Source: a virus
Taxonomy: Duplodnaviria; Caudoviricetes
Length of the DNA stretch: 33,494 nt
IMG/VR virus record: IMGVR_UViG_3300044724_000968
Coordinates: 1-33,494 of that record
Strand: one strand, 5' to 3'
The notes beneath the pieces are model-generated. The model worked only from the letters and a program-made list of their open reading frames with translations. It was not told where the DNA came from and did not search any database. Position 1 is the stretch's first letter. Every line of letters begins with the position of its first letter. Below are positions 13,983 through 33,494 of this stretch, one piece after another. A program made the translations under genes and the position numbers.

Positions 13983-16900
13983 ATGGGTATCTTTCAATAT
14001 ACTGATCCGCAAACCCGACGAAGCTATGACTTTGAAATTGCAGGTGATGACCCTAGTAACGAAGATTATGCTAAAATACGTCAATATTTAGACGGTGAAC
14101 GTGCTGAATACGCGCAGCGTTACCAAAATGTATTCGGTAAAGAGTTTGAAGTAGACGATGAAACAGCCGTGCGCCGTGGGCTTCGCCGTGGATATCAGCA
14201 GATTAAAGGTGCGGTTGGCGAAACACTTGGGACTGCTGGTGAGGAGGCGGGGCTTGGGTTTCTTGCAGAATACGGACAGGACGTAGAAGAGAGATCACGA
14301 CAGCGGCTAGGGGAACTACTACTTGAACAACCCGAACGTATGCAGTCAACTGACGTAGATAGTATTGGCTCTGCGTTGACGTATGCAGGAGAACTTGTTG
14401 GTGAGCAAATCCCGCAGCTTGGCCTTGGTCTTGGCGCAGCAATAGCAGCCCCTGTCATAGCAGGCACAACAGGCTTATCCGCAGTTGGTTTAGGGATAGC
14501 CGCAGGTGGCGTAGCCACAGCTCCAATTTTGTTTGGTAACAACATCCAGCGCCGCGAAGATGTTGTAGGTGAAGGCAATCTAACCGAAACTGACATATAC
14601 AACGCTCTAAAAGCCACATTCGGACAAGCAGCGCTTGAAGGTATATCCTCTAAAGTGTTGGCAGGTGGTCTATTCCGTCCGCTAGGCAAGTCTATATTTA
14701 CTCGCACAGCGAGCCGTGCGACAGGCGGTGCGACCACTGAAGGTTTAACTGAAGTCGGTCAACAAATGATGGAGCGAGCGCAAGCTGGCCTCCCAATCGA
14801 CAGCGAAGATGCTATTGCAGAATACCGTGAAGCAGCTATCGCAGGTGGTCTAATCGGTGGCGGCACACGCGCTACATTCGGTGCGTTCCAAGGTGTACCC
14901 GAAACTGAAGCAGAAAAGAAAGCTAGGCTTGAAGCAGAAGCAGACGTAGACGCAGAAGCCACTGCAGTTACCACAGAAGTAGAAACAGAAGCCGCTGCAG
15001 TCACCACAGACACAGATATAGGCACTGACCCTACGGACGTTACTCAACCAGAAGCGGATAAAGTCGAAGAAACTATAGCTGCGGCTGAAGAAATCACAAC
15101 CGTTACGGACGCTCAAGCTACAGAAGCAAGAAATGCTGCTGACTCTACACCACCCAAAGGCAAAGCAGAACAAACCGATACGCAGCGAGCGGTAGCCGCA
15201 GCCGATGTAGATACAAGTACAGATAAACAAACGGCGATTGCTAAAGAAGCAAGGTTAAAACAAGAAGAAGCATTAAGAAAAACTGAGAAATATATTAAAC
15301 CTGCCGTAGACCCCAACGCAGTAGCGGAAGATCGTGACGCTGCACTAAAAAGTGAGCAAAGCGGTGAGAATATACAGGTAGGGGTTAGAGAAGAAGTAGA
15401 AGTAGACGCTGTAACAACTGACTCTAATGTAATAGATGACGACTTCTTGTCAGGTCTAAGTGTACCGAAAGAGGCGTTGATTAGACGTAAAAACACAAAG
15501 ATAAGCTTAATCGGCAAAAAGAAAAACGATCCTGCGGTCATTGAAGCGTTAAAAAAATACGCGCTTACAAGTTCCGTATCAGCAGCCAAACAAGGCGTAA
15601 CTGATTATCTTAGTTCTGTAGGAGTATCTCTTGAAAGAAAATCTGACACAGAAAGACTTGGAGTTGGCGTTCCAAGTGATCAACCAAGCGTGGTTGGAGG
15701 ACTCGGACGAGACAGTACAGATACCGAGGTCGTTGCGGAAGCTGACGTGGGAAGACTGGGAACTGATCTGCCACCTGCTAGAGATACTGCAGATACAACA
15801 GGAATCGAGTCCGATACATTAGAAGATGTGGATTTTGTTACAGCACGGGGGTCTACTTACTCTATCAAAGAAGGCAACCGCACTAAACGAAATCGCGCCT
15901 CTAATACAAAAAGTGGTGAGTTCGTAGAACAGCCTACTAGCGGCAAAACAATTTATATGTCTTACGAAGATATGAATAAGTTTGGTTCGTTATTTCAACA
16001 AGGCGAGCTAGGACTGTATAAATTTCTTCCGATAGAAGGTACTACAAACGAAGCCCAGTTAGTTTACACTCAAGACTATGGACCATTTAAAGCCGGAGAT
16101 CCTGTATCGGATACACAGGTAACTTTTTCCACTACCCCAGAAGTAGGTAAACACCCCGTTGAGATTTATGACTCAACAAACAAAACTGGCAATGATATCC
16201 ACTTTGGCTCTAAAATAACAAAAGTAAATTCTACTAAACCTAAAACTGCAGCAGCGTTAGAAGAATTAAAACAGCAAGCTGATATTGCTACAGCCGAACC
16301 AGTAGCGCCTGCTCCTCAACCTGCTACACCTGCCATGCAGCAAGCAGCAATCGGTGGTGCCGAAACAGGACTTGCGGGACAAGTAATTCCTGAACCTGTA
16401 CAAGTACCCGCTGCACCGCCAATGCAAGCCGCGCCTGTTCCACAAGAACAGTTACAGGCTATGGAAGCGCAACAAGACGCTGCTGCACAAGCACGTATTG
16501 ACAGGGTGTTTGAGAGCAATCGGGGTAAGCAGCCACAGGTCCGAGAGTATCACGATACACAAGTAGACCCACGCTCTGCACCAGAAGTCACGACTGCGGT
16601 GGACAAAGAGGGTGTTGCAGACTTACTAGAAACCCCCGACAAAGATCTTGATACACGGGCTAAAGCGGCAAAACTTTTCTTCAAGCGGTTCCGCAGACCT
16701 GTTGATGCCCTCGCCGAAATGGGCGCAGTTAGTGCTGCTGGACCTGCACAGTCTATTGAAAAAGACTATACTCCGGTTGAGTTTGCTTTCTACAAAGGCA
16801 TGACCCAAAAGTCAGCTATGGATGCGCGGAAGTGGGTGTTTGATAATCTGTCTCGTCAAGCTTTTGTAGAAACACGCGATGCAAGTGTTCTTGCACGTCG

Positions 16901-19900
16901 AGACACAGCAAAATACAGCCCATCTGATGCGTATATCCGTGCAACTAAGTCAATCAAACAAGTCCTAAATAACGAGCAAAGAAGATATAATAGGCAGCTT
17001 GAAAAAGATGTAGAAGCGTACACAGAAGCAAAACGCGCAGAAGCCGCAGCGGAGCAGGTGAATAAACAGCTTGCACTAGATACTTCTATGGATGCGCCTC
17101 GACCTATGGTTACGCAGGCGGGAGAAGAACTTTTCCGTGTAACTACACCTAAAAAAGGTGAGACAGCATTCGATTCTTACTTGCTTAGTATGGGCTTTAA
17201 GAAACGCAAAGTACCTAAACAAGACGATTATGTATTTATAGATCCTGACACCAAAAAAGCTCTAACTGATGAAGAGCTTATGGACTTCTACGATGGTTGG
17301 GTTGCGTCCCGCGAAATGGGCTTCTTGCTTATTGACCCCGTGCATGGGCTAGACCAAGCGTTGCTTCCAAGCATCCGTAACGCGCTACAACGTGGGGATT
17401 TAGGTTTTGCGTTGGACGCTATAGCTTCAACAAGTCAAGTGGACCGCATTCGTGAAATTGCAGCCAAGCTTGCCAATGTTGTCGGCGATACACAGGTACA
17501 GGTAGTTGATGACCTATCCGCAATGACAGGGCGAAAAGCCGCTGGATTTTTTAGACCTCAAACAAATACAATTTTCATTGATGCTAACAACGGGATGAAC
17601 GTGCATACTATTCTGCACGAGATGACCCACGCAGCTACCTCGGCATCATTGGCGAACCCATCTCTACCAGAAGTAAAGCAGCTACAGGCTATACTTAAAA
17701 ATATGCGAGAGCAATTAGGTGAGGTGTATGGCACAGCAGACTTGGACGAGTTTGTTGCAGAAGCCTTCAGTAACCCTGAGTTCCAAAGAGCATTAGCTCT
17801 TGCCCCGGTAGATGGTGGTAAGATGTCAGGCTGGGAGAAGTTTACAGGTGCTGTAAAACGTATCGTCCGGAAGCTACTAGGTTTGTCACCTTCGCCGACT
17901 GCACTATCAGAAATAGATAGATTGATCGACGGTATGCTGGCCCCATCACCAGCCACACGCGCAGCGCCAAACATGTTGTTAGCAGCAGGTACACGAAAAG
18001 GTGCAGCAGATTTGTTGGGTACATATTTTACTGCTGTACCGAAAGAAGACAGAAATAGCTACGAGCGGATAAGGGATGTTGTTCTTGCTAACACCCCAAG
18101 GTCAGTTAAAAATTTTGCTCTTTCTTTGCAGCCCGTAACTAACTTAACTCGTATCGCTAAAGAACGTATTCCTTTTGCCCCAGAACTAAACGTATTAATT
18201 GACCAAGCGTCAGGAGCGTACCGAAAAGCTTTAGAGCCTGTCGATGTAATATACGAAGATTATAGAAAATTCCGTAAGGCAAACCGCGCCGCATACGATA
18301 AAATGCTTGGGTTAATGAACCGCGCAACCCAAGAAGAAGTTGATCCCGCACGTCCAAGAGATACGTACGCACAATACTGGTTATCTTATTTCGATAAGAA
18401 AACTGAAAAAACAGTGACCCGTGCATTTAAAAACGAACAAGCGCGTAATGCAGAAATAGCAAAATTAAACGCCGATTTAAAAGCTGATGAAGACGCAGGC
18501 AAAACACTAACTCGTACTAAAGCTAAAAAAGCTGGTGATGCTAATGCAGACAAAACGGCAATGTGGGATGTCCTAAATAAAGAATACAAGGCTTTAGGTA
18601 AGCAAGGGCAAGACCTGTATAAAATTACCCGCAATATGGGTGAGAGTGCTATGGACCGTATTCTTCCAGCTATGAAAGCACGTATAGACGCTATGGGGGT
18701 AGACAGCGCGACAAAACGAACAGCATTCGAAAAGCTTGCGGACCTACTCCATGCTGAAAGTGGTGTTATTCGTCCATACTTTAGGCTAAATCGTGATGGG
18801 GACTTCCGTCTACAATACGTTGCTCCTGATCCTCTTACAGGTAACGATGAAGTTTTCACTGAGCGGTACGACTCCGAAAGAAAATTACTACAAGCGCAAG
18901 AGAATGTTAATAAGTTTTTAAAACGTATAGAACGAGAAGACTTGGTTTCGCAGATAGAATCAGGTAGGGACAGCGGCGTACGGAATTACGGCAAAGCTCC
19001 TAGCTCTTCGTTTGTGTTTAACCTATTACAAACGCTACAAGCTACAGGCGTAGATCAAAAAACAATGGATCGGGTTGTTGATCTTGCTTTAGACGCTATT
19101 CCAGAGCGTTCATTTATGCAGTCGTTCCGTAGTCGTAAAGAACGCGCATCCGGTGGACGGGGTGTATTCGGTGCGCTTGGTGAGGTTACTCCGTCAGGTA
19201 TGCCCGGAATGGATGCTGACCCTGCAGAATTATTTCGAACAAATTTTCGTGGTATAGAGAAACAACTCGTACAGTTAGAGTATGGCGCAAAAATACAGCA
19301 GTTCCGTAATAAGTTAGAAGATGGGAACTATTTAAATCGCCTTGATACGGATGTAATGGCTAGAAAACTAGATAAAATAGCCGAATTTGCGCAGTCTCCA
19401 TCTATGCCAAACTGGTCGCGGATAGCTACATCTGCAGGGTTTGGGTGGACTATGGGCGCGAACATATCTTCTGCGGCTGTTACCTTATTTGATATGCCCA
19501 TGAGTGTATTCCCATATCTAAGCGGGGAATACGGCATAATGAAAACAACAAGTGCTATAAGTAATGGTGCTAAGTTATTTTTAGGGTCGCCCGAAACTAA
19601 GACAGTAACCATCATGGGCGCAGATGGGCAACCTGTTCAGCGTGAAGTGAAGATGAGTAAGTTTGGTAAGTCTATGGCTAACTATAACTACGACGATCCT
19701 AACTTGCCTAACGACATAAAAAGATATGAACCTCTCGTAAAACTTGGCACCCCACGTGGATTTTTTAACCAAAGTATGACCCAAGAACAGTTAGATATAA
19801 CTGGGGACCGTGATGTTTTAGAGAAAATAAATGTAGTAAGTAGTTTCTTATTTCACCACACAGAAAGAATGGGGCGTGAAACCTCTCTAATTGCCGCATA

Positions 19901-20993
19901 CGATTTAGAGTTAAATAAACTAAGTGACAACGGAAGAAAAAGAATCACAGAACAAGACGAGCGAGCCGCAGCAGAAAAAGCACTCGATTCTGTGGAGCTT
20001 ACGCTCGGAGGCACCGCCGCTGCTGGTAGACCAGTATTTGCACAAAATCCAGTCGGTAATGTGGTTTTCTTGTTTAAACGGTTTGCGGTGCAACGCTACT
20101 ACTACATGGCTCACCTGCTTGATCAGGCGTTGTCAGGAGCAGACCCAGAAACTCGCAGTATTGCTAAGAAACAACTAGCACAAGTCTTTATAATGTCAGG
20201 GATACTGGCTGGCGTAGGCGGTATGCCACTGATGGGCGCAATCGGCGCAATCTATAACATATTTACCGATGATGACGAAGATGATTTTGATGCCATGATG
20301 CGTAAGACTATACCGGGGGGTATGTATGACGGATTTGCAAACGAAATACTCGGTGTTGACGTGGCAAGTCGTGTCTCTATGAACAGCTTACTTTATCGCC
20401 CACCTATCGTAGAAAAAGATCAGTTTCCTCTTTGGACACTCGCAGAGCAAATAGGTGGCCCTGTCGTTGGATCAGTACAGAGTATATGGCGTGGCTACAA
20501 GTTGGTAGGAGAAGGTGAGTATCTACGCGGCGCAGAAGCCGCATTACCTGCAGCGGCAAGGAATCTTATTAGGGCGTATAGATTTGGAACAGAAGGCGCG
20601 ACAACCTTACGTGATGACCCAATCGTAAAAGACATTAACCCATACAATACGTTTATGCAGGGTCTAGGGTTCGCACCTGCAGATTATATCGAAAACCTAG
20701 AGAAGAACAGAAACGAGCGCAGTAAGAAAAACTTTATAGATCAAAAACGCCGTAAACTTATGAGGCGGTACAATATGGCTAGAAGAAACAACGACAACGA
20801 AGGCGTACAAAAAGCACTGCGTAAAATACAGGAGTTTAACGCCAACCTACCTTCAAACTACCGTGTAGAAAGTCGTATTGACCGTGAAGATCTTAGAAAA
20901 TCATATAAAGGGTTTACGCGCACTACGGGTAACATGGTAAATGGTGTTGTATATACAGACGCCATGCGTAAGAGTTACGAAGAGTATAAATAA
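13983..20993 (+). CDS. Giant internal virion / polyvalent protein with zincin metallopeptidase-like domain
   Basis: 2336-aa uninterrupted ORF with an N-terminal Gly/Ala hydrophobic region. HEMTH...DEFVAEAFSNPEFQ lies at about 17616-17785, followed by a PLxRFG-like YFRLNRDGDF and a helical C-terminal region. Confidence 0.75.
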   Translation: MGIFQYTDPQTRRSYDFEIAGDDPSNEDYAKIRQYLDGERAEYAQRYQNVFGKEFEVDDETAVRRGLRRGYQQIKGAVGETLGTAGEEAGLGFLAEYGQDVEERSRQRLGELLLEQPERMQSTDVDSIGSALTYAGELVGEQIPQLGLGLGAAIAAPVIAGTTGLSAVGLGIAAGGVATAPILFGNNIQRREDVVGEGNLTETDIYNALKATFGQAALEGISSKVLAGGLFRPLGKSIFTRTASRATGGATTEGLTEVGQQMMERAQAGLPIDSEDAIAEYREAAIAGGLIGGGTRATFGAFQGVPETEAEKKARLEAEADVDAEATAVTTEVETEAAAVTTDTDIGTDPTDVTQPEADKVEETIAAAEEITTVTDAQATEARNAADSTPPKGKAEQTDTQRAVAAADVDTSTDKQTAIAKEARLKQEEALRKTEKYIKPAVDPNAVAEDRDAALKSEQSGENIQVGVREEVEVDAVTTDSNVIDDDFLSGLSVPKEALIRRKNTKISLIGKKKNDPAVIEALKKYALTSSVSAAKQGVTDYLSSVGVSLERKSDTERLGVGVPSDQPSVVGGLGRDSTDTEVVAEADVGRLGTDLPPARDTADTTGIESDTLEDVDFVTARGSTYSIKEGNRTKRNRASNTKSGEFVEQPTSGKTIYMSYEDMNKFGSLFQQGELGLYKFLPIEGTTNEAQLVYTQDYGPFKAGDPVSDTQVTFSTTPEVGKHPVEIYDSTNKTGNDIHFGSKITKVNSTKPKTAAALEELKQQADIATAEPVAPAPQPATPAMQQAAIGGAETGLAGQVIPEPVQVPAAPPMQAAPVPQEQLQAMEAQQDAAAQARIDRVFESNRGKQPQVREYHDTQVDPRSAPEVTTAVDKEGVADLLETPDKDLDTRAKAAKLFFKRFRRPVDALAEMGAVSAAGPAQSIEKDYTPVEFAFYKGMTQKSAMDARKWVFDNLSRQAFVETRDASVLARRDTAKYSPSDAYIRATKSIKQVLNNEQRRYNRQLEKDVEAYTEAKRAEAAAEQVNKQLALDTSMDAPRPMVTQAGEELFRVTTPKKGETAFDSYLLSMGFKKRKVPKQDDYVFIDPDTKKALTDEELMDFYDGWVASREMGFLLIDPVHGLDQALLPSIRNALQRGDLGFALDAIASTSQVDRIREIAAKLANVVGDTQVQVVDDLSAMTGRKAAGFFRPQTNTIFIDANNGMNVHTILHEMTHAATSASLANPSLPEVKQLQAILKNMREQLGEVYGTADLDEFVAEAFSNPEFQRALALAPVDGGKMSGWEKFTGAVKRIVRKLLGLSPSPTALSEIDRLIDGMLAPSPATRAAPNMLLAAGTRKGAADLLGTYFTAVPKEDRNSYERIRDVVLANTPRSVKNFALSLQPVTNLTRIAKERIPFAPELNVLIDQASGAYRKALEPVDVIYEDYRKFRKANRAAYDKMLGLMNRATQEEVDPARPRDTYAQYWLSYFDKKTEKTVTRAFKNEQARNAEIAKLNADLKADEDAGKTLTRTKAKKAGDANADKTAMWDVLNKEYKALGKQGQDLYKITRNMGESAMDRILPAMKARIDAMGVDSATKRTAFEKLADLLHAESGVIRPYFRLNRDGDFRLQYVAPDPLTGNDEVFTERYDSERKLLQAQENVNKFLKRIEREDLVSQIESGRDSGVRNYGKAPSSSFVFNLLQTLQATGVDQKTMDRVVDLALDAIPERSFMQSFRSRKERASGGRGVFGALGEVTPSGMPGMDADPAELFRTNFRGIEKQLVQLEYGAKIQQFRNKLEDGNYLNRLDTDVMARKLDKIAEFAQSPSMPNWSRIATSAGFGWTMGANISSAAVTLFDMPMSVFPYLSGEYGIMKTTSAISNGAKLFLGSPETKTVTIMGADGQPVQREVKMSKFGKSMANYNYDDPNLPNDIKRYEPLVKLGTPRGFFNQSMTQEQLDITGDRDVLEKINVVSSFLFHHTERMGRETSLIAAYDLELNKLSDNGRKRITEQDERAAAEKALDSVELTLGGTAAAGRPVFAQNPVGNVVFLFKRFAVQRYYYMAHLLDQALSGADPETRSIAKKQLAQVFIMSGILAGVGGMPLMGAIGAIYNIFTDDDEDDFDAMMRKTIPGGMYDGFANEILGVDVASRVSMNSLLYRPPIVEKDQFPLWTLAEQIGGPVVGSVQSIWRGYKLVGEGEYLRGAEAALPAAARNLIRAYRFGTEGATTLRDDPIVKDINPYNTFMQGLGFAPADYIENLEKNRNERSKKNFIDQKRRKLMRRYNMARRNNDNEGVQKALRKIQEFNANLPSNYRVESRIDREDLRKSYKGFTRTTGNMVNGVVYTDAMRKSYEEYK
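15631..15822 (+). CDS. Candidate nested, overprinted 63-aa protein inside the giant gene
   Basis: AGGAG (15620-15624) lies 6 nt before the TTG. The product is an amphipathic helical sequence, while the host frame here is low-complexity. Confidence 0.45.
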   Translation: MKENLTQKDLELAFQVINQAWLEDSDETVQIPRSLRKLTWEDWELICHLLEILQIQQESSPIH

Positions 20994-30583: not shown

Positions 30584-30772
30584 CTAGACATTTTTACCTG
30601 CAATACGCAGTTGTTTTACGAACTCTTTGAGTTCCCTTCTTGCCCGATCCCAATCCTGATTGACATTCGGGTGCTTAAATTGCGTCCTTAGACTTTCGTT
30701 TTGGTAGTGGTCCACCTCTCGACGAAGGTGACGCAAAAGTGCTTCTTCAACAGGTGTAAGTTTTTCACTCAA
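30584..30772 (-). CDS. Hypothetical protein (62 aa)
   Basis: TTG start overlapping the upstream TGA. GGAG upstream. Helical, charged product. Confidence 0.6.
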   Translation of the reverse strand: MSEKLTPVEEALLRHLRREVDHYQNESLRTQFKHPNVNQDWDRARRELKEFVKQLRIAGKNV

Positions 30773-30897
30773 AACGGTGGCTCCTCTCCCTCATAACTTG
30801 GTTTCCACGCTACGTATTCTTCACGTACGCTTACGTGTTCTTCCCGTTCTTCTACCAGCCCCATCTCCTTTAGAAACAGGGCTAGTTCTTGTGACAC
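30769..30897 (-). CDS. Small 42-aa protein missed by the ORF track (ends WKPSYEGEEPPF)
   Basis: GTG start 4 nt after the upstream stop. It fills the gap exactly and its TGA overlaps the next TTG start. Confidence 0.6.
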   Translation of the reverse strand: MSQELALFLKEMGLVEEREEHVSVREEYVAWKPSYEGEEPPF

Positions 30898-30901
30898 ATT
30901 A

Positions 30902-31399
30902 TCAAGCTGCATCTTCGTCGTCTATGCCGCGCAACGCATGAACGAGTTGTTCCATCGGTGTAACGTCATGCCCTACATGTTCGACACAGCCCCGATACCT
31001 AGCCAACCACGCAGCCAAAGCCTGTGCAGCTTGCAGTCGCAACTCTTGTTGCGAAGCTTCACTTGAAGGATCAAAAGGGATGTACCCGCCCCCATGCTTT
31101 CTGTCTTTCATGGGACTAATGTAAGCTGGGTAATCAGCTACTTTGATACGCACCTTAACATCTTTCACTGTCTCATGTTTAACAGTGATGCGAAGTCCGC
31201 GAATAAGTCCCGCAATCCGATCCTTCTCATACTCTTCGATCTTTTTGTCATCGGAAGCACCGAAGACGTAATCGTAAAATTCGTGATCTGGTTTTTGTTT
31301 TAGCCATTCACGTATTTGCGCGACATCAAGAGTATTCCTACCTGTTTCTGCCGCGTATTCATTTATAAGCCGCTGCTTATCGCTCTTCTTGAAGTTCAT
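30902..31399 (-). CDS. Uncharacterised protein directly downstream of the pentamer array (candidate accessory protein)
   Basis: 165 aa with a GGAG RBS. Motif KPDHEFYDYVF..SDD....YEKDRIAGLIRGLRITV...PAYISP...GGGY. Confidence 0.75.
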   Translation of the reverse strand: MNFKKSDKQRLINEYAAETGRNTLDVAQIREWLKQKPDHEFYDYVFGASDDKKIEEYEKDRIAGLIRGLRITVKHETVKDVKVRIKVADYPAYISPMKDRKHGGGYIPFDPSSEASQQELRLQAAQALAAWLARYRGCVEHVGHDVTPMEQLVHALRGIDDEDAA

Positions 31400-31426
31400 A
31401 TTTTCTCCATTTCAAGTTAATATTAA

Positions 31427-32257
31427 AAACCAAGCCGGACCATACCGTTTATGCGCCCCAACTCGCCGAACCCGTCCAAACCGGACCGTTCCCCGACCGC
31501 CGTAACTCTCCATGCCCAAACATATCTTACCGGACCCCGACCGCCTTAACATACCGCGACAAACCGCGACAGACCTAACCGGATCTCGCCCCGACCGCCA
31601 TGCCGAAAAACACCAAAACTTAACGGGCCGAACCGCACCATGACCGCCGTACCGAGACCCAACATGCCTGACTTACCACACCAAAGCGCACCGAAACACG
31701 ACCGCCGTAACTGACCGAACCACGCGAAACCAGAACAAACCTGACCGCACCGCACCTCGACCGCCCTACCATGCCCCACCGTGACTCAACTCGTCCCGAC
31801 ACGCCTTGCCTTGACCGCCCTACCATGCCCCACCGTGACTCAACTCGTCGCGACGCGCCTTGCCTTGACCGCCCTGACTGACCGTGATCAAACTGAACGG
31901 GCCATACCTAGACCGCCACGCCAAAAAACACCAAAACTTAACTCGCCGAACCAGAACTCACCTTGCCTAGACCGCCAGACCTTGACCAGCCGAACCCTAT
32001 ACGACCCAACCGAACCGCGACCGACATGCCGTGACCCAACTGATCATACCCCGCCCTAACAGACCTTACCTTGCCTTGACCGACACGCCGTAACCCAACT
32101 GACCTAACCCCGTCGAACCAAACCTTGCCTTGACCGACTTGCCTGACCGCAACCCACCTGACCGCTACGTGCCTCTCCACACCGCGCCTCGACCGACATA
32201 CCGAACCAAAACTCAACATAACCGACCGTAACTTACCCCGCCTCGACCGCCTTGACC
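31427..32257 (-). ncRNA. Non-coding G(G/T)Y-NN pentamer array of 15 units (putative guide RNA array)
   Basis: The delimiter GACCG(C/A)C (+ strand) starts at 31495, 31539, 31593, 31642, 31700, 31759, 31813, 31867, 31911, 31970, 32019, 32078, 32132, 32191 and 32245. Spacings are 44, 54, 49, 58, 59, 54, 54, 44, 59, 49, 59, 54, 59 and 54. Between delimiters a conserved triplet alternates with a variable dinucleotide. The repeat structure is directly seen; expression as RNA is inferred. Confidence 0.85.
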
Positions 32258-32268
32258 AAAAGGGGGAA

Positions 32269-32284
32269 GGGGCATTGCTGCCCC
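32269..32284 (-). promoter_or_regulatory. GNRA-tetraloop hairpin between the RAMP gene and the array (leader, processing site or attenuator)
   Basis: On the - strand it reads GGGGCA-GCAA-TGCCCC, followed by TTCCCCCTTTT and then the first array unit. Confidence 0.65.
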
Positions 32285-32289
32285 AACCT

Positions 32290-33126
32290 TTATTCTGCTG
32301 CAATGTCCTGTATATCCGCATCGAAGCGACGACCCATCTCTGACTTGACATATTCTACCAAGTCCGCTGTAACATCGTCGGCATACTCAGGATTATCCAT
32401 CGCTGCCTGTTGGACATCACGCCCCTCAAGCATCAACTCATCCCAAACTTTTTGTGGTGAACTGCCGTCTGGCATAAAGTCTGTCCAATCATCTCCGCTA
32501 TCGGATGTACCAACAACAAATGTGCCATAAGACCCACGGCCTTTCTCTTGCCGAAAATCACCGATACCAATGATTGCACCCGCATTGCTGAGTAGTGATA
32601 CAATACCATAGGCGCTGAGTGTTGGTTGAACATAGGCAATATCAACCTCTGCGCACCAACGCGGTAGATAACAACGCGTCCGTATGTCTGGCGTACGTTT
32701 AATATCTGCGGTGCGAACTATGTCAGTCTTTAACTGCGGCTTACCCCATATCTGAATGTGGGTTTGCGGCATAAAGATCAGACGTTGCACAGACGCCTTG
32801 GACACATTTTCTGTCTCAAGTGCTGCTGTAGCCATAGCAGCTTTGACCCCCGGAGCGGGGAAACATAGTAGTGTTTCTCCAAACTCCTTTTTGTATGCGG
32901 AGTCATAGAACTCTCTTATGGGATCATGTTTCATCCCTGTTAGCTGCTTCTTACCTTTGACCTTTTCTTTCGGTGCAGCAAGATCGCGCATTGTTTTGAC
33001 GCTCATGCTGTTGAAGTAAAGAGGTGTTGTACCAACCATCCGTAAACGGACACGACCCTTCTTGAACTGACTAATTTTAAGTGTTTGTTCTGAAGGTTCT
33101 ACGGTTTCTTTTTGCTTGAAAGCCAT
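32290..33126 (-). CDS. Stand-alone RAMP-superfamily (Cas7/Csm3-like) RNA-binding protein
   Basis: The first strand RLRMVGTTPLYF, the segment FPAPGVKAAM (cf. IPGSSLKGAL) and the C-terminal Gly-rich loop GIGDFRQEKGRGSYGTF occur in RAMP order. The gene is adjacent to the array. Confidence 0.75.
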   Translation of the reverse strand: MAFKQKETVEPSEQTLKISQFKKGRVRLRMVGTTPLYFNSMSVKTMRDLAAPKEKVKGKKQLTGMKHDPIREFYDSAYKKEFGETLLCFPAPGVKAAMATAALETENVSKASVQRLIFMPQTHIQIWGKPQLKTDIVRTADIKRTPDIRTRCYLPRWCAEVDIAYVQPTLSAYGIVSLLSNAGAIIGIGDFRQEKGRGSYGTFVVGTSDSGDDWTDFMPDGSSPQKVWDELMLEGRDVQQAAMDNPEYADDVTADLVEYVKSEMGRRFDADIQDIAAE

Positions 33127-33428
33127 GTTTGTTGTTTTCCATTACCAAGAGTTTGTAGGGTTTGCCCTACTTGTGAAAGGTTATCTTCATTGATAACCAG
33201 CGAAATGCCACCTGCTGCTGCGATGTCTTTAAGGTTTTTCTGCTGCAACGGGGTGGGCTTGTTGCTGCCAGCCTTACATTCAATACCGACAAAGAAGCCG
33301 TTGTAACATGCAACTACATCAGGCACACCGCTGCGCCCGTAGCCACCTGTCACAGGGTAAAAGAAGTAGGCACCAAACTCTTTAAGTGTAGCGACAACTT
33401 TCTTTTTTACTTTAGCTTCTGGTGTCAT
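33099..33428 (-). CDS. VRR-NUC domain nuclease (Holliday junction resolvase-like)
   Basis: PEAKVKKKV, GRSGVPDVVAC, FVGIECKAG..KPTPLQ. Confidence 0.9.
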   Translation of the reverse strand: MTPEAKVKKKVVATLKEFGAYFFYPVTGGYGRSGVPDVVACYNGFFVGIECKAGSNKPTPLQQKNLKDIAAAGGISLVINEDNLSQVGQTLQTLGNGKQQTWLSSKKKP

Positions 33429-33458
33429 GTATTTCCCGTAGTAACTGGCATCAAACGA

Positions 33459-33474
33459 GGGCGGTTTTCCGCCC
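33459..33474 (-). terminator. GC-rich hairpin upstream of VRR-NUC (possible weak terminator)
   Basis: GGGCGG-TTTT-CCGCCC on the + strand. Only a short T-run follows on the - strand. Confidence 0.4.
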
Positions 33475-33494
33475 CCGAAATTGGTAGTGTTTCA

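Follow-up and report, generated by a model that had tools for sequence, protein, structure and literature searches.

VIPR is a CRISPR-related gene silencer that consists of Vipr, vap and vrRNA, with a one-base skip that falls on the wobble base (Yoon, Loi et al., bioRxiv 10.64898/2026.04.26.720920). One of the guides, vrRNA4 of SUSP1, targets the excision recombinase of the F5 satellite and was shown in tests to block satellite excision (Lopez et al., bioRxiv 10.64898/2026.10.15.759431). Tyrosine recombinases are marked by the HxxR signature (PMC8371274). Here we analyze a stretch of 33,494 nt (hereafter, the window), which is positions 1 to 33,494 of the virus record IMGVR_UViG_3300044724_000968 (Duplodnaviria; Caudoviricetes); the CheckV completeness of this record is 55%.

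The plus strand of the window carries structural and ejection-type genes, and the minus strand harbors a replication module that includes primase, SNF2 helicase, PD-(D/E)XK nuclease, and PolA. Tandem repeats of 66 nt (22 codons) at 1613-2113 and 2195-2351 lie within the ORF at 1532-2371, which is probably a repetitive virion protein, and the 2336-aa ORF at 13983-20993, with LPD39 and DarB-like matches, is a large polyvalent/ejected protein. No cas families were detected among the 29 ORFs of the window, no Rfam families in the window, and no sigma-70-like promoter at 30700-33494.

A staggered pentamer array next to a RAMP-fold gene

The vrRNA array (31443..32256, minus strand), located between a 278-aa RAMP-fold ORF (32290-33126) and a 165-aa ORF (30902-31399), coincides with a C-rich segment that has a GC skew of -0.4 at about the same coordinates. 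It encompasses 15 units of 9-12 G(G/T)Y-NN pentamers and is preceded by a 2-pentamer stub; GGY or GTY starts 147 of the 164 parsed pentamers. Every unit begins with GTC, ends with G(G/T)CGG and abuts the next one with a 1-nt overlap, and no structured 3' tail was found between the units. The unit spacings are 44, 49, 54 or 59 nt (5n+4), apart from one of 58 nt that involves a 1-nt loss. Overlapping ORFs within the array (for example, 31938-32351, 137 aa) are treated here as by-products of the repeat. Units U6 and U7 are near-duplicates, and halves are held in common by U11 and U12 and by U3 and U9. An RNA-library contig omits 107 and 108 nt, that is, two whole units each, at GACCG junctions (31591-31699 and 31758-31867); these skips are array variants produced by unit loss or gain. 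The RNA-library contigs span vipr and parts of the array, not U10, account for small shares of the window, and are no measure of transcription or habitat. A GC-rich hairpin (32269..32284) separates the stop codon of vipr from the array, and similar hairpins are found 3' of vipr in two related loci (L448 and L453); this element might be a terminator or a processing mark.

The vipr gene (32290..33126, minus strand) encodes a 278-aa protein with a RAMP/Cas7-like fold and the G-loop GIGDFRQEKGRGSYG. The structural model built from a 35-sequence alignment has a pLDDT of 54, whereas the single-sequence fold only reached 32 and was discarded. In a Foldseek search with the former model, all 33 among the matches listed are CRISPR effector complexes (best E value of 3e-4), and VIA gave the best Z of 8.3 for a Cmr subunit (rmsd 3.8, 156 aligned). 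At the sequence level, the top PDB match is SUSP1 Vipr, with a weak E value of 0.26; in a profile search, SUSP1 Vipr has an E value of 0.029 and ranks behind an unrelated EpiD stretch. The GGY-binding residues of SUSP1 Vipr given in 10.64898/2026.04.26.720927, namely R138, D177, W178 and R179, correspond in this weak alignment to R151, D190, F191 and R192, and all four of the latter are invariant across 35 Vipr homologs.

Pentamer arrays adjoin 78 of 80 related viral vipr genes, and the 165-aa ORF (30902..31399, minus strand) is a conserved neighbor of vipr, present in 77 of 89 related loci. This ORF belongs to no Pfam or PHROG family and is a candidate vap accessory gene; searches found no link to any named vap family, no nuclease signature and no detectable likeness to cultured-phage proteins. 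The locus, with its RAMP-fold gene, staggered array and accessory ORF, is a VIPR system. Vipr-like hypothetical proteins with 23-29% identity are encoded in Gordonia, Mycobacterium and Pseudomonas LESphi2 phages (records H1-H31). A search of 401 Rhodobacteraceae-family genomes, 192 Puniceispirillum-order genomes and 5 single genomes, run without a positive control, yielded no Vipr match.

Unit U10 and the tyrosine-integrase HxxR box

Unit U10 (31972..32021, minus strand), a predicted vrRNA guide, reads gtcGC ggtTC ggtTG ggtCG tatAG ggtTC ggcTG gtcAA ggtCT ggcGG on the minus strand, that is, nine variable NN followed by a constant terminal GGCGG. The preliminary description of this DNA gave the nine plus-strand pentamers at 31977-32021 exactly as they occur (NN = AG TT CA GA CT CG CA GA GC) and omitted the tenth, constant one that closes the unit. 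Under a one-base skip, the target strand of U10 is AGnTTnCAnGAnCTnCGnCAnGAnGC, the coding strand of a tyrosine-integrase R-F-H-D-L-R-H-E-A box. Indeed, the previously proposed reading, RFHDLRHEA, is compatible with U10 at 9 of 9 NN, with a chance of 3e-11 per placement given the NN frequencies of 412 related guides. One triplet of U10, tat, is non-canonical and lies over the Leu wobble base (31987-32001 region).

The gapped NNx code with the skip at the wobble base, inferred previously from the sequence of the array, holds up, but is the published VIPR rule (10.64898/2026.04.26.720920) rather than a new code. In IMG/VR, the U10 pattern produced 36 exact matches at skip 1, compared to none at skip 0, none at skip 2 and none for one shuffled order, in agreement with the predicted enrichment of in-frame integrase hits. 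Among these matches, 24 are in frame at tyrosine-integrase HxxR boxes; the remaining 12 are antisense, and 11 of these represent one redundant family, so that the 18 fixed bases alone permit chance matches. At skip 3, the pattern has 10 matches: 9 recover the nine NN of this guide within other pentamer arrays, and 1 is due to chance. All 9 contigs with such array matches encode a Vipr homolog that is 44-57% identical to that of the window, and the contig with the chance match encodes none. Skip 3, which had been suggested as a control gap size, is thus invalid as a negative control because it retrieves other VIPR arrays.

The skip rule was also assessed independently of integrases, using 348 guides with at least 8 NN. 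Of these, 19 match the loci of relatives at skip 1, versus 0.5 for shuffled guides, 1 at skip 0 and 1 at skip 2. The codon frame is kept in 26 of the 28 best guide matches, in loci that were partly chosen by these same patterns. None of the 348 guides matches the window itself at skip 1, the window being 55% of the genome.

Among species genomes, the skip-1 pattern of U10 has at least 120 matches, and 102 of the 120 fetched read [RS]FHDLRHEA. In the Puniceispirillum order, a site with at most one mismatch is present in 30 of 192 genomes (7 exact sites in 6 genomes; 1 of 192 for the shuffle), and in Rhodobacteraceae, in 10 of 401 genomes, which is only a hint that the target sites are denser in the former, given that both groups were picked from matches. 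Of these sites, 20 were fetched, and in 19 the context is typical of integrases, with tRNA genes close by in some cases. A family pattern derived from related guides matches 78 viral loci, mostly with 43-49% GC, in each of which (78/78) the match is in frame at an HD(L/F)(R/S)H recombinase box; all 3 of the matched proteins that were scanned passed PF00589. The best agreement of the window guide with these 78 viral FHDLRHEAI integrases is 8 of 9 NN (5 loci). A guide variant from a phage with an identical Vipr (L038) matches, at 9 of 9, four of the six loci that were inspected (see below), where the window guide scores 8 of 9. The mismatch between the two guides at these loci is CT versus TT, a difference that might be accommodated by a G-T pair.

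The six FHDLRHEAI loci that were inspected are temperate phages with a repressor, an HTH_17 gene and an integrase beside a window-like replication module. The identification of the approximately 20-kb FHDLRHEAI contigs as satellites was rejected: these contigs derive from temperate phages, of which they are fragments, and carry full replication modules. Targeting of a satellite of the window's own phage is likewise unsupported, with a structural-region gene held in common with the window at only 1 of the 78 loci. No element was found that is matched 9 of 9 by U10 together with another window guide. The HxxR box is common to many integrases, both in temperate phages and in tRNA-linked islands, and therefore, the predicted guide would act as a broad, family-level weapon rather than one directed at a single element. 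Because integrases are common, match counts in databases alone cannot prove targeting. Of the earlier suggestion that U10 targets the integrase of a rival prophage, satellite or island, the tyrosine-integrase match stands, on the strength of the in-frame matches and the controls, whereas the box, being so widespread, singles out no specific rival element.

Other units of the array and other guides of the related phages also have matches in phage genes. Unit U13 (32134..32193, minus strand) has an in-frame match to EA(I/V)ETAQGAH in the HK97-type large terminase, with 10 of 11 NN at best, and U8 (31869..31913, minus strand) matches, in frame (LWVQWGMY) and at 8 of 8 NN, the gene for a 114-aa membrane protein upstream of the endolysin in a related phage (L064). 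Overall, the guide targets in relatives comprise the HK97-type large terminase (three sites), the prohead protease, the lysis-region membrane gene and the vipr G-loop. The family of U13 is the commonest among the guides (13 variants in 24 loci; L097:541-2058, L117-L235), and its target motif, EA(I/V)ETAQGAH, belongs to an abundant HK97-type large terminase (>120 viral matches). Further guides match EVGQVRG and AEAGTAHG of the same terminase and DVSIVTTPAY of the prohead protease. U8 and one guide of L054 have two in-frame sites in the same 114-aa gene (phrog_2524; L064:7318-7662) of a sister VIPR phage, and an L096 guide has an 8 of 8 match at the G-loop of the L094 vipr.

The HK97-type phages (L094-L112, for example, L097:541-5366) have a VIPR of their own between the terminase and portal genes, with a Vipr that is about 60% identical; thus, the targeted phages are armed, too. 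Four of five HK97-type or related VIPR records were checked for co-location, and PF00589 is missing from the two near-complete ones with the targeted terminase, which indicates that the elements targeted by the terminase guides are not those targeted by the integrase guides. No close HK97-type terminase was found in the 192 Puniceispirillum-order genomes, in a search without a positive control. The last unit of the array, U0 (31443-31497), has 11 variants in 21 loci and decodes to G-T-P-(F/L)-R-(S/T)-(D/E)-G-A, with CG/AG variation at Arg. No target was found for this widely conserved unit, nor, overall, for 12 of the 15 window units.

Guide variation, mechanism and rival explanations

The window and 78 relatives (79 arrays) yielded 957 parsed units, of which 635 contain 7-17 pentamers, for a total of 412 unique guides. 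HDLRH is decoded by 8 of these 412, compared to 0.01-0.02 in 300 shuffles, and within HDLRHE, the eight guides vary only at Leu (CT/TT) and Arg (CG/AG), which are the only first-position synonymous changes in this motif. We then have an additional, held-out metagenome scan, performed in guide form with F, H, D, H and E fixed and with the Leu and Arg slots open, which gave 50 matches in 49 loci. The Leu slot contains CT or TT in 48 of the 50, and both slots are synonymous in 41 of the 50 (24 of 29 unique cores), with a chance expectation of 0.011; all four Leu/Arg synonymous combinations are present. The exceptions include 7 matches (3 cores) with the non-synonymous AT at the Arg slot and 2 unrelated ones; 4 of the 50 sit within internally repetitive arrays. 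AT at the Arg slot, which would read I/M, is the only recurrent non-synonymous variant and marks a lineage of the integrase guide (L464, L461, L469, L465, L471, L485 and L494).

The triplet over the Leu wobble base is non-canonical (cgt, cat, tat, cac, gct or gac) in 22 of the 29 guide cores, against a baseline of at most 0.25. This shared middle triplet points to common descent, so that the guide counts do not represent independent events; the related integrase guides were probably inherited. Across all units, non-canonical triplets peak at pentamers 4-5 (0.24-0.25). The arrays turn over fast: among six loci with 99-100% identical Vipr, the U10 guide is present in three.

The preliminary description held that synonymous changes cannot escape such a guide. 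This is an overstatement: in 3 of the 9 codons (Arg, Leu, Arg), a synonymous change is possible at the first position and alters the bases read, and 25 of the 30 one-mismatch sites in the 192 Puniceispirillum-order genomes (counted by eye) differ by precisely such a change at Arg or Leu. These changes appear to be covered by the guide population. A broader proposition, to which we assign about equal weight for and against, is that a wide lineage of marine phages, with Vipr 44-100% identical, maintains a single anti-integrase guide as a family-level weapon, its letters co-evolving with the only silent escape of the target, the first-position swaps of Leu (CTN/TTR) and Arg (CGN/AGR). If correct, this would be direct evidence for tuning of VIPR guides by point mutation and selection, and would imply arrays reshuffled unit by unit rather than CRISPR-like capture.

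Our preferred interpretation, which we hold with good confidence, is that U10 is a predicted VIPR guide that matches codon positions 1-2 of the HxxR box in a family of tyrosine integrases, and that rival integrase genes are likely silenced by the Vipr filaments that it brings to them. By analogy with the SUSP1 VIPR, the minus-strand transcript would be cut into single units, one Vipr would bind per pentamer, and the NN would pair with the coding strand of the integrase gene, in which every third base is flipped out, without involvement of a PAM. The bound filament could then block transcription about 40 codons before the catalytic Tyr, and resident temperate phages or islands might thereby become unable to excise or integrate during infection. 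The binding of the integrase gene could also act otherwise than through a transcription block, for example, if the 165-aa accessory protein were recruited and then cut or occluded the DNA. The match is close to the 3' end of the integrase gene, far from the promoter, the accessory ORF is of no known family, and some VIPR types include predicted nucleases or helicases (10.64898/2026.04.26.720920); however, this ORF shows no nuclease signature, and the published phage-borne VIPR represses from inside coding sequences, so we deem such a route improbable.

A regulatory role within the phage itself, whereby the guide silences the phage's own integrase as a lysis-lysogeny switch, would require that an integrase is encoded in the portion of the genome that was not sequenced. 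With a completeness of 55%, the record leaves room for such a gene, and the matched viral integrases come from phages with a window-like replication module (PolA, SNF2 helicase, PD-(D/E)XK, primase and HTH_17). Nevertheless, PF00589 was not detected in the complete genome G006 (Vipr 89% identical), in the complete, terminal-repeat genome G614, which bears the same nine NN, or in 9 partial guide-bearing records; the HTH_17 gene of the window is not adjoined by an integrase, which is the place of the latter in the temperate relatives; and although G010 encodes an integrase along with an HxLRH-type guide, this integrase reads HTLKH, not the motif of the guide. Self-regulation is, accordingly, quite unlikely. 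The earlier statement that no integrase is encoded is accurate for the window, with no PF00589 match, whereas for the whole phage, given the incomplete record, it rests on the relatives. Finally, the match could be due to chance, with one of 15 degenerate units fitting a famous motif post hoc, given that each NN admits 1-2 residues and that any HDLRH-compatible pattern is enriched in databases, integrases being common. The probability per placement (see above), the recurrence of the guide in phages with Vipr down to 44% identity, and the in-frame matches of other guides to terminase, prohead protease and vipr genes argue against this explanation, and the held-out test, where the open slots hold synonymous pairs, refutes it, leaving it a negligible probability.

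Comparison with described systems

The locus resembles VIPR (10.64898/2026.04.26.720920) in having a RAMP-fold gene with a G-loop, one candidate accessory gene, and GGY/NN units of 9-12 repeats, as well as in the one-base skip at the wobble position, the units overlapping by 1 nt, and targets on either strand of rival phage genes; the array fits the staggered architecture of Fig. S18 of that report. Unlike in the published VIPR, in the window, GTY triplets are nearly as common as GGY, there are 15 guides, and no resemblance to proteins of cultured phages was detected for the accessory ORF. The window Vipr consists of 278 aa versus 202 aa in SUSP1, and, unlike in VIPR type II (SUSP1-like), the units lack a structured 3' tail after the repeat tract. 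The modeled effector fold of Vipr appears similar to the Cas7/Csm3/Cmr RAMP backbones of Class 1 CRISPR, but the window has neither a cas operon nor a repeat-spacer array, and the pairing is non-contiguous.

Within VIPR, the nearest parallel is SUSP1 vrRNA4: like this guide, U10 reads the first two positions of each codon in an active-site stretch of a recombinase, with the wobble base skipped. The vrRNA4 target is 6 codons (residues 79-84) of a serine recombinase from one E. coli satellite family, whereas the U10 target is 9 codons of the tyrosine-integrase HxxR box in marine-type temperate phages and tRNA-linked islands; and, unlike vrRNA4, the U10 family includes variants that cover the Leu/Arg first-position synonymous codons. 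The word "tyrosine" does not occur in the text of 10.64898/2026.10.15.759431, and a literature search found no paper that links VIPR to a tyrosine recombinase; the word "integrase" is absent from the supplement PDF of PMC13142463, although its Data S1-S4 and the bioRxiv supplementary tables may list such targets. VIPR, the wobble skip and recombinase targeting (of a serine recombinase) are already published, and the useful addition is the guide variants that cover the Leu/Arg silent escapes. These expose a limit of the "wobble-proof" idea, with the six-fold Leu and Arg codons as the remaining escape route, apparently tracked by the guide population. With a guide family that has natural variants and whose target codons are known, the origin of VIPR guides becomes testable, and the staggered, tail-less guides of 45-60 nt are compact candidates for programmable repression. 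Compared to SUSP1, VIPR recombinase targeting is extended from the serine recombinase of one E. coli satellite to tyrosine integrases in aquatic phages.
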